From positions 4,898,001 to 4,962,000 of the forward strand of contig OZ024754.1 of assembly GCA_964016885.1 (NCBI GenBank): a DNA stretch of 64,000 nt, in the 5' to 3' direction. The stretch is from Eledone cirrhosa (Eukaryota). Every line of letters starts with the position of its first letter. Within the stretch, counting starts at the first letter, position 1. Shown here one piece after another: positions 51,280 to 52,123 of this stretch. Both the position numbers and the translations under genes were made by a program. The notes below the pieces were generated by a model. The model worked only from the letters and a program-made list of their open reading frames with translations, made no database searches and was not told the origin of the DNA.

Positions 51280-51972
51280 CATATATATTACTTTATACAC
51301 CTTACAAGGAGTCGTCACCAACCAACCAACAGGAATTATTTACCCACCACGAAAAGGAATTAAAGAAAGAAAGAAAAAAGGATATATTATATATATATAT
51401 ATATATTATTATTATTATATACATACACACACACATACATATATATATTTATATAGATATATATATATACGCACGCAAACACACGCATATATATATATAT
51501 TTATGTACTGCCCATAGTGAGGGAGTAAAAAAGGGGGGGAATCGGGGTGTGTTGGTGTGCTTATCGTTACATATATATACACATATATATATATATACAT
51601 ATATATATACGTATACATACATGTTGGCGTGTGTGTGTGAGTGTATGCGAGAGTGTATATGCGTATGAAGGGGGGGGCACTGTTATTTGGGCCCCCGTCA
51701 AACATCCATTTCTACCCTTGCTGACCTAGGGAGAAAAAAAAAAAAAAAAATAATAATAATTATAATAATAAATAAGAGAGAAATCTCTTTTCTATCTCTG
51801 TTATTTTTTCTTCTTCTCTCTCTCTCACTCTCTCTCTCTCTCTCTCCTCGAGGTGGGGGTAGAGTGAGTGACCTTCGGTGAACCGTAGTGGCCAGACAGT
51901 TCGTGACCTGGGACTAAACTAAGAAGAAAGGAGTGCGAGTCGCACAGCAGGTGCTCGGGGGGAAACTTTCCC

Positions 51973-52026
51973 ATGATTCAGCAGAGATCGCGGCCATCTT
52001 ACATGTTATTCTTTGTCCAGATGTAA
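51973..52026 (+). promoter_or_regulatory. uORF (MIQQRSRPSYMLFFVQM*) with three in-frame ATGs ending in ATG-TAA, overlapping a YY1-like CGGCCATCTT (51991-52000)
   Basis: Direct translation. It ends 45 nt before the main ATG. Confidence 0.55.
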
Positions 52027-52071
52027 AGCCGTCGTCCGGATCGAGATATTTTATAGAAGCTGTCTGGCAAC

Positions 52072-52123
52072 ATGTCACGGAGGAAACAGGGCAAACCACA
52101 GCAAAGAAAAACCGTTGATTCAT
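52072..52123 (+). CDS. Bcl11: First coding exon of a Bcl11/CTIP-family C2H2 zinc-finger transcription factor (NuRD/RBBP4-binding N-terminal motif)
   Basis: CAAC-ATG context. MSRRKQGKPQQRKTVDS shares its first 10 residues with vertebrate BCL11A. Phase-1 donor T|GTAAGT at 52124. SALL (MSRRKQAKPQ) and FOG (MSRRKQSNP) match less well. No later exons were found in the window. Confidence 0.85.

Follow-up and report, generated by a model that had tools for sequence, protein, structure and literature searches.

Non-coding DNA that remains alignable between molluscs and vertebrates is rare, and among its closest described examples are the bilaterian segments of Frith and Ni 2023 (PMC10735318, with the Royo 2011 and Clarke 2012 elements as described there). 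Twenty-five segments are reported in that paper, none of them named as Bcl11, and the name appears in neither its main text (0 occurrences) nor its supplement. The 5' leader of Bcl11 analysed here shows the same kind of short vertebrate-mollusc non-coding similarity: it lies beside an orthologous developmental transcription-factor gene, its position and orientation are kept, and short boxes are conserved. In contrast, the 25 segments are characterised there as promoter, enhancer, intron or 3' UTR sequence, whereas the Bcl11 leader is a transcribed 5' leader with upstream ATGs (uATGs), and it is weaker than those segments, with blocks of 5-9 nt. Non-coding conservation beyond vertebrates has also been described at BCL11A, in the form of an amphioxus-human element near the gene (Holland et al. 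2008, as cited in PMC2781166), but that element concerns chordates only and may or may not be the Bcl11 leader.

Two further classes involve upstream open reading frames (uORFs). Position-conserved repressive uORFs and start-stops (10.1101/2021.07.26.453809, the main text of which does not name Bcl11) resemble the Bcl11 leader in that uATGs and an ATG-stop occur in the leader of a transcription-factor gene; however, the position of the Bcl11 start-stop is not homologous between phyla, and L013, one of the leaders compared below, lacks it. Similarly, conserved-peptide uORFs (PMC7530721, Bcl11 again not being named in the main text) are brought to mind by a uORF of 15-17 codons in which GCCATCT is read in one and the same frame (Pro-Ser) both in the octopod sequence and in the vertebrate leader L021, but in Bcl11 the uORF peptide is unconserved, the frame is shifted in L013, and both octopod changes alter amino acids. 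No earlier report of a mollusc-vertebrate Bcl11 leader was found in the literature listings, several supplements lying outside the search. Overall, the Bcl11 leader is probably a further example of the known, rare class of bilaterian regulatory segments, with moderate statistical support and an inferred mechanism.

The window, meaning the whole stretch of DNA that was analysed, comprises 64,000 nt of Eledone cirrhosa (GCA_964016885.1, OZ024754.1, positions 4,898,001-4,962,000, forward strand). The features on which the comparison depends are as follows, in window coordinates.

51856..52071, + strand: 5' leader (5' UTR part of Bcl11 exon 1), covered by an unbroken contig of run X2; its start is at or upstream of 51856
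From 51966, + strand: CTTTCCCATGATTCA
51972..51976, + strand: block 1, CATGA, containing uATG1, whose context is weak (C at -3); precedes the other blocks in L013, L016 and L021
51973..52026, + strand: uORF of 17 codons, MIQQRSRPSYMLFFVQM and stop, the stop being 45 nt ahead of the main ATG
51993..52000, + strand: block 2, GCCATCTT, a YY1-type motif; exact in L013 and L021, absent from L016 and L022
52003..52005, + strand: inner uATG2, unconserved (A52003T in runs X7 and X9)
52009-52020, + strand: TTCTTTGTCCAG, a pyrimidine run and then CAG
52010..52018, + strand: block 3, TCTTTGTCC (contains CTTTG); exact in L013, TTTGTCC in L016, TCTTTGT in L021
52020..52038, + strand: uATG3 as an ATG-TAA start-stop (52021-52026) with the 12-mer AGCCGTCGTCCG (52027-52038); unchanged in the octopods read, missing from the bivalve-like L013
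52044..52052, + strand: block 4, AGATATTTT; 9/9 in L021, 8/9 in L016 and L013, absent from L022
52072..52123, + strand: coding part of Bcl11 exon 1, MSRRKQGKPQQRKTVDS plus 1 nt; 16/17 residues equal to the N-terminus of P0001
52124..52129, + strand: splice donor GTAAGT of intron 1, phase 1; the X2 contig stops at 52123, where X15 has a loose end

The gene is Bcl11, as originally proposed. PF25491 (the CCHC_BCL-11A finger) matches two exons in the species' own 3.0-Gb genome (G000), located on C14 (L002) and C17, respectively. Of these, the L002 exon shares 99% identity with P0001, an Octopus bimaculoides protein named B-cell lymphoma/leukemia 11A, and the N-terminus of P0001 equals exon 1 of the window, with one V/I change, joined to an L002-type exon. 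An RNA contig from run X15, which by its sequence comes from a related octopod, spans 52016-52123 and then continues into the first letters of the L002 exon. Therefore, the window carries octopod Bcl11 exon 1, with an N-terminal MSRRKQG.PQ peptide of 17-18 codons, a phase-1 intron, and a splice join to the PF25491 exon that is seen both at the loose end of X15 and in P0001. The leader and exon 1 stretch is single-copy in G000, at C14:4949880-4950135. A search of the PDB with the first 20 codons gave no match.

Eight of the 24 listed sequencing runs were examined against the leader (X2, X5, X6, X7, X9, X13, X14 and X15). In X2, a single contig (depth 33) spans 51856-52123 without interruption and ends precisely at the donor, where it splits, one branch being a contig of depth 4 that reads into the intron and the other a 32-letter record of depth 34. 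X2 has the same species code as the best holders and, from this donor branch and its size, is probably an RNA run; in it the leader is unspliced through the uORF, so that the uATGs lie inside the mature mRNA. At its upstream end the contig has 37 extra letters beyond 51856, repeats upstream of that position having been skipped in mapping. A CT-rich tract is present at 51800-51850, just upstream of the covered leader, and pyrimidine tracts also precede the first uATG in L016 and L021; these are of low complexity and were not counted as evidence. No contig of X6, X13 or X14 spans exon 1, which proves nothing.

The original prediction had cautioned that TTCTTTGTCCAG could be a splice acceptor, with most of the uORF then being intronic. 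A pyrimidine run followed by CAG would suit such a site, the X15 contig starts at 52016, and contigs drop rare forms (nor can they locate the start site). However, the X2 contig remains intact from 51856 to 52123, without a branch at 52020, though the donor does give rise to one (depth 33 vs 4); X15 agrees with the window at all five letters before and including the AG (52016-52020) and has no loose end there; and L013 carries block 3 followed by GG, not AG. The caution is thus not borne out by the contigs, in which no use of the block at 52010-52018 as an acceptor can be detected, and an intronic uORF is improbable in the extreme.

The original prediction had read the uORF, the ATG-TAA, AGCCGTCGTCCG, CTTTCCCATGATTCA, GCCATCTT, AGATATTTT and TTCTTTGTCCAG from the letters, and each is present in the window where it had been placed; a third in-frame ATG, at 52003, had been overlooked. 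The three uATGs (51973, 52003 and 52021) are in one frame and have a common stop at 52026, and all three have a pyrimidine at -3, compared with an A at the main ATG (52072). A lone uORF or a lone ATG-TAA is no more than chance expectation, the background of ATGTAA being about 0.13 per 220 nt in 400 kb of the same chromosome. The above-chance signal is instead the set of ordered blocks common to the window and other Bcl11 leaders.

Variation among octopods bears on what within the leader is retained. Run X5 has six substitutions in 51856-52071 and none in 51967-52055, and runs X7 and X9 have five substitutions and two 2-nt deletions in the leader; the CATGA of block 1 is unchanged in all three. 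Both substitutions within the X7/X9 uORF are amino-acid changing, and one of them (A52003T) removes uATG2. A conserved uORF peptide was therefore rejected, the lengths also being dissimilar: counterparts elsewhere have 42, 15 and 16 codons, compared with 17 in the window, with unlike peptides, and the L013 uORF overlaps the coding sequence rather than stopping before the main ATG. A conserved RNA fold was likewise rejected, stability relative to shuffles being z = +0.55 for the whole leader and, among seven fragments, z = -1.84 for one and 0.03 to 1.74 for the others. One modest hairpin (51985-52035) loses one pair via A52003T.

Other Bcl11 leaders were taken from metagenome contigs, which were scanned by a coding-sequence-only pattern in order to avoid selecting for leader motifs. 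Four of the 24 matches are Bcl11 first exons, as judged by a peptide that continues and by a phase-1 donor following codon 17 or 18: L013 (MSRRKQGRPQQRLTLDS), L016 and L021 (BCL11A type), and L022 (BCL11B type). The remaining 20 served as decoys, and the same scan of genome_contigs and viral_contigs gave 0 matches. L013 equals a Mercenaria protein and one unnamed protein at 16/17 residues, and the peptide tentatively suggests a bivalve-like origin. From their peptides and from the existence of two diverged bcl11a-type copies, we take L016 and L021 to be teleost bcl11a and L022 to be bcl11b. The compared leaders thus comprise one from a non-octopod invertebrate and three from vertebrates. In each case the leader is non-coding and lies in front of an orthologous Bcl11 first exon with the same intron phase, its position and orientation being kept. 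For control leaders of another kind, a loose MSRRKQ pattern was uninformative in G000 (222 matches vs 304 for the control); a tighter pattern gave 22 matches, among them three other MSRRKQ-type first-exon candidates, L052, L061 and L063 (G000 C1:437321788, C4:346813987 and C6:61362493), which were used as controls.

For pairwise tests, the 220 nt upstream of each main ATG were compared by local alignment against 2000 dinucleotide shuffles under three scoring schemes (the first being +2/-2/-5/-1). The score of the window with L013 was reached by 7, 3 and 273 shuffles and that with L021 by 3, 18 and 88, whereas the comparisons with L016 (736, 1484 and 445) and L022 (948, 141 and 287) were not significant; in the same test, none of the 20 decoys fell below 18/300. 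Exact-word chains at k=5, 6 and 7 gave 3, 8 and 29 of 2000 shuffles for L013, 28, 41 and 69 for L021, 127, 109 and 133 for L016, and 808, 287 and 107 for L022. With no more than one mismatch allowed, L013 (4/20000 shuffles) and L021 (3/20000) contain GCCATCTT followed by AGATATTTT, and L016 and L022 do not. For these pre-named blocks, the value of 4/20000 indicates conservation within protostomes, as judged from one species only. Real octopus tiles are a harder null, under which 31/3276 reach the L013 score and 67/3276 the L021 score (1-2% for single pairs), and 1/3276 reaches both. L013 and L021 are not significant as a pair (1371/2000 by local alignment and 146-219/2000 in a further pairwise test), and the likenesses of the bcl11b leader L022 (CCAGACAGTT and a 2-mismatch 12-mer) are weak and not significant. 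In MAFFT alignments the blocks are not lined up between molluscs and teleosts, owing to length differences. Several of these statistics were run on the same few sequences. Overall, the expectation that the sequence would align with other Bcl11 leaders better than shuffled controls held for L013 and L021 and failed for L016 and L022; the ordered blocks proposed as a protostome-deuterostome non-coding element occur in L013 and L021, some of them in L016, and none detectably in bcl11b.

The order CATGA, CCATCTT, TCTTTGT, AGATAT is shared by the window, L013 and L021. This three-way chain is equalled by 8/3276 real tiles at k=5 and by 26/3276 at k=4; the corresponding numbers of tiles are 74 and 561 of 3276 with L016 in place of L021, and 1906 and 1992 with L022. 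Among 75 overlapping tiles of the teleost loci, none reaches the L021 score (7 vs 9, 14 vs 15). A mollusc mask was also defined, retaining just the window positions shared with L013 and chosen without vertebrate data. Against L021 it was equalled by 4/5000 shuffles (k=6) and 16/5000 (k=5), against L016 by 41/5000 and 194/5000, and against L022 by 4522/5000 and 1523/5000, and it found no match in the three other MSRRKQ-gene leaders of G000 (2915-4821/5000). The reverse mask, made of vertebrate-shared positions, was weak (1134 and 65/5000 for the window, 1098 and 2859/5000 for L013, with the control leader L061 at 115/5000 for k=5), and a four-way test gave 450/10000 and was equalled by 3/47 transformed controls. 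In terms of similarity to deuterostomes, L021 is therefore above controls in the direct, mollusc-mask and three-way tests, L016 is so in part, and L022 is not. L016 and L021 retain partly different blocks of the molluscan set. In teleosts, block 4 lies within a uORF start (ATGAAGATATTT), the ATG of which is absent from both molluscan leaders. A possible fifth block was seen after the fact: GTAGAGCG is exact in L013 (offset -83) and L016 (offset -170), after CATGA, and window positions 51979-51986 read CAGCAGAG at the matching place.

These comparisons lend moderate support to the sharing of blocks between molluscs and vertebrates, the support being only moderate because the reverse test is weak and the leaders are few. 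As far as the sequences speak, a real homology of the leader between the two groups is probable. A different account, in which the leader is conserved within molluscs and its vertebrate likeness reflects convergence or chance among short common motifs at a locus picked for its resemblance to human BCL11A, appears quite unlikely. In its favour are the small size of the blocks (just 5-9 nt), the recurrence of YY1-type motifs near start sites, the weakness of the reverse-mask and four-way tests, the lack of significance of L013 vs L021 alone, the absence of signal in bcl11b, and the use of octopus-derived null tiles rather than real vertebrate leaders of other genes. However, the blocks that match the fish are those kept between octopus and L013, and L013 played no part in the selection of the locus (4/5000; 8/3276); moreover, the four-block order is retained in front of an orthologous exon with equal intron phase. 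The original prediction had placed the homology elsewhere, pairing the octopus ATG-TAA and its 12-mer with a vertebrate ATG-TGA near the main ATG. The teleost bcl11a leaders do have an ATG-TGA at -37 (L021) and -36 (L016), compared with -51 for the ATG-TAA of the window, the octopod copies read are unchanged, and L022 has a copy of the 12-mer with 2 mismatches, albeit without a start-stop. Yet the teleost ATG-TGA lies downstream of AGATATTT and the ATG-TAA of the window upstream; the pairing runs against the order set by AGATATTTT and does not fit into the chain of four blocks; the ATG-stop is absent from L013 and L022; the best matches to the 12-mer have 4 mismatches in L013 and 5 in each of L016 and L021; and the one of three literature matches to the 12-mer that was followed is an unrelated synthetic gene. 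In the in-order alignment, the GATGT of the window instead falls on a teleost uATG from which a uORF of 47 or 15 codons starts, not a start-stop. Therefore, the two start-stops are not homologous in position, even though each is found 36-51 nt ahead of the main ATG, and the pairing first put forward is very improbable.

Under the favoured reading, the ordered blocks come from a bilaterian ancestor and act mainly by damping Bcl11 translation, a combined claim whose prospects fall slightly short of even. Scanning ribosomes would partly start at the weak uATGs at 51973 and 52021 (and, in this species, at 52003), all stopping at 52026, and either leaky scanning or re-initiation across 45 nt would bring ribosomes to the main ATG at 52072. 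What is retained would be the position of the uATGs, not the uORF peptide, and the ATG-less blocks (GCCATCTT, TCTTTGTCC and AGATATTTT) would be protein-binding sites on DNA or RNA that act alongside, GCCATCTT being predicted to bind YY1. Damping of this kind is suggested by the retention of uATGs, by a listing for mouse Bcl11a, and by reporter results. The uATG1 in CATGA is found in four of five leaders (window, L013, L016 and L021; not bcl11b L022), for two of the three window uATGs an in-order counterpart exists in L016 as well as in L021, and all four uATGs of L021 are kept in L016, compared with 58/218 trimers overall. Position is thus conserved for uATG1 and for the teleost uATGs, but not for uATG2. 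At about 65% identity overall, L021 and L016 include among their four shared uATGs a start-stop at -37/-36 and a short uORF starting MKIF. Mouse Bcl11a is listed among transcripts with translated uORFs in cortical neurons (preprint 10.1101/2022.04.05.487068); it is not named in the journal version of that ribosome-profiling study (main text and two supplements). In reporters, as described in 10.1101/2021.07.26.453809, start-stops and short uORFs repress downstream translation.

The uATGs cannot account for three of the four shared blocks, since these hold no ATG in molluscs. Because such blocks need another cause, the main rival to translational damping accepts the blocks as truly ancestral but places their action on the DNA: a YY1 site, a CTTTG site and AGATATTTT would together form a promoter-proximal module immediately downstream of the start site, and the uATGs would be secondary. 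Consistent with this, GCCATCTT fits the YY1 consensus GCCATCTTG / CGCCATNTT given in PMC7481187; as predicted sites, L013 fully matches both forms, L021 matches CGCCATNTT, and the window matches 8/9. YY1 footprints are described as sitting downstream of start sites (PMC11670102), CTTTG is named as a Wnt response element in PMC10735318, where the bilaterian elements are mostly promoters and enhancers, and conserved mammalian leaders are stated to overlap promoters often (PMC9456764). The lack of a shared RNA fold points the same way. On the other hand, the two teleost bcl11a leaders have all four uATGs in common, at least 137 nt of transcribed sequence precede GCCATCTT, and L016 is without GCCATCTT and yet keeps its uATGs; the consensus CGCCATNTT is absent from both L016 and L022. 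A module acting chiefly on DNA is rather unlikely, and both layers may act.

The more specific proposal that a translational-control grammar of the 5' leader, consisting of a uATG and three ordered binding motifs, has been kept before Bcl11 since the protostome-deuterostome split is a tentative one. If true, it would be the 5' UTR equivalent of the bilaterian promoters, enhancers and 3' UTR elements already known, and comparing octopus with human would single out the few BCL11A leader bases that set dose. The bases kept from octopus to fish would then amount to a short list of sites for the control of BCL11A level and for the reading of 5' UTR variants. The Bcl11 leader is also a compact test case for conserved leaders acting on DNA or on RNA.

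The exons of Bcl11 are not found on one strand and in order in G000. Exons 2-3 lie on the minus strand at C14:3473957-3502590, 1.45 Mb from exon 1, which is on the opposite, plus strand at C14:4950072. A flipped scaffold piece is the likely, though not proven, cause of this conflict because of a 200-N gap at C14:3569646, which is the sole gap in the 400 kb read; none is present in the 200 kb after the window. If a scaffold piece is flipped, Bcl11 intron 1 would be longer than about 279 kb. Among the insect Bcl11 proteins returned (P0011-P0032), most start with MRIKMPAVRIAQ or MPAVRIAQ, not MSRRKQ; because of these differing starts, those insects likely use another first exon, and they may be without the Bcl11 leader. 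The second exon above the PF25491 cut-off (L003, G000:C17:14166821-14166904, minus strand) possibly belongs to a Bcl11-related gene.
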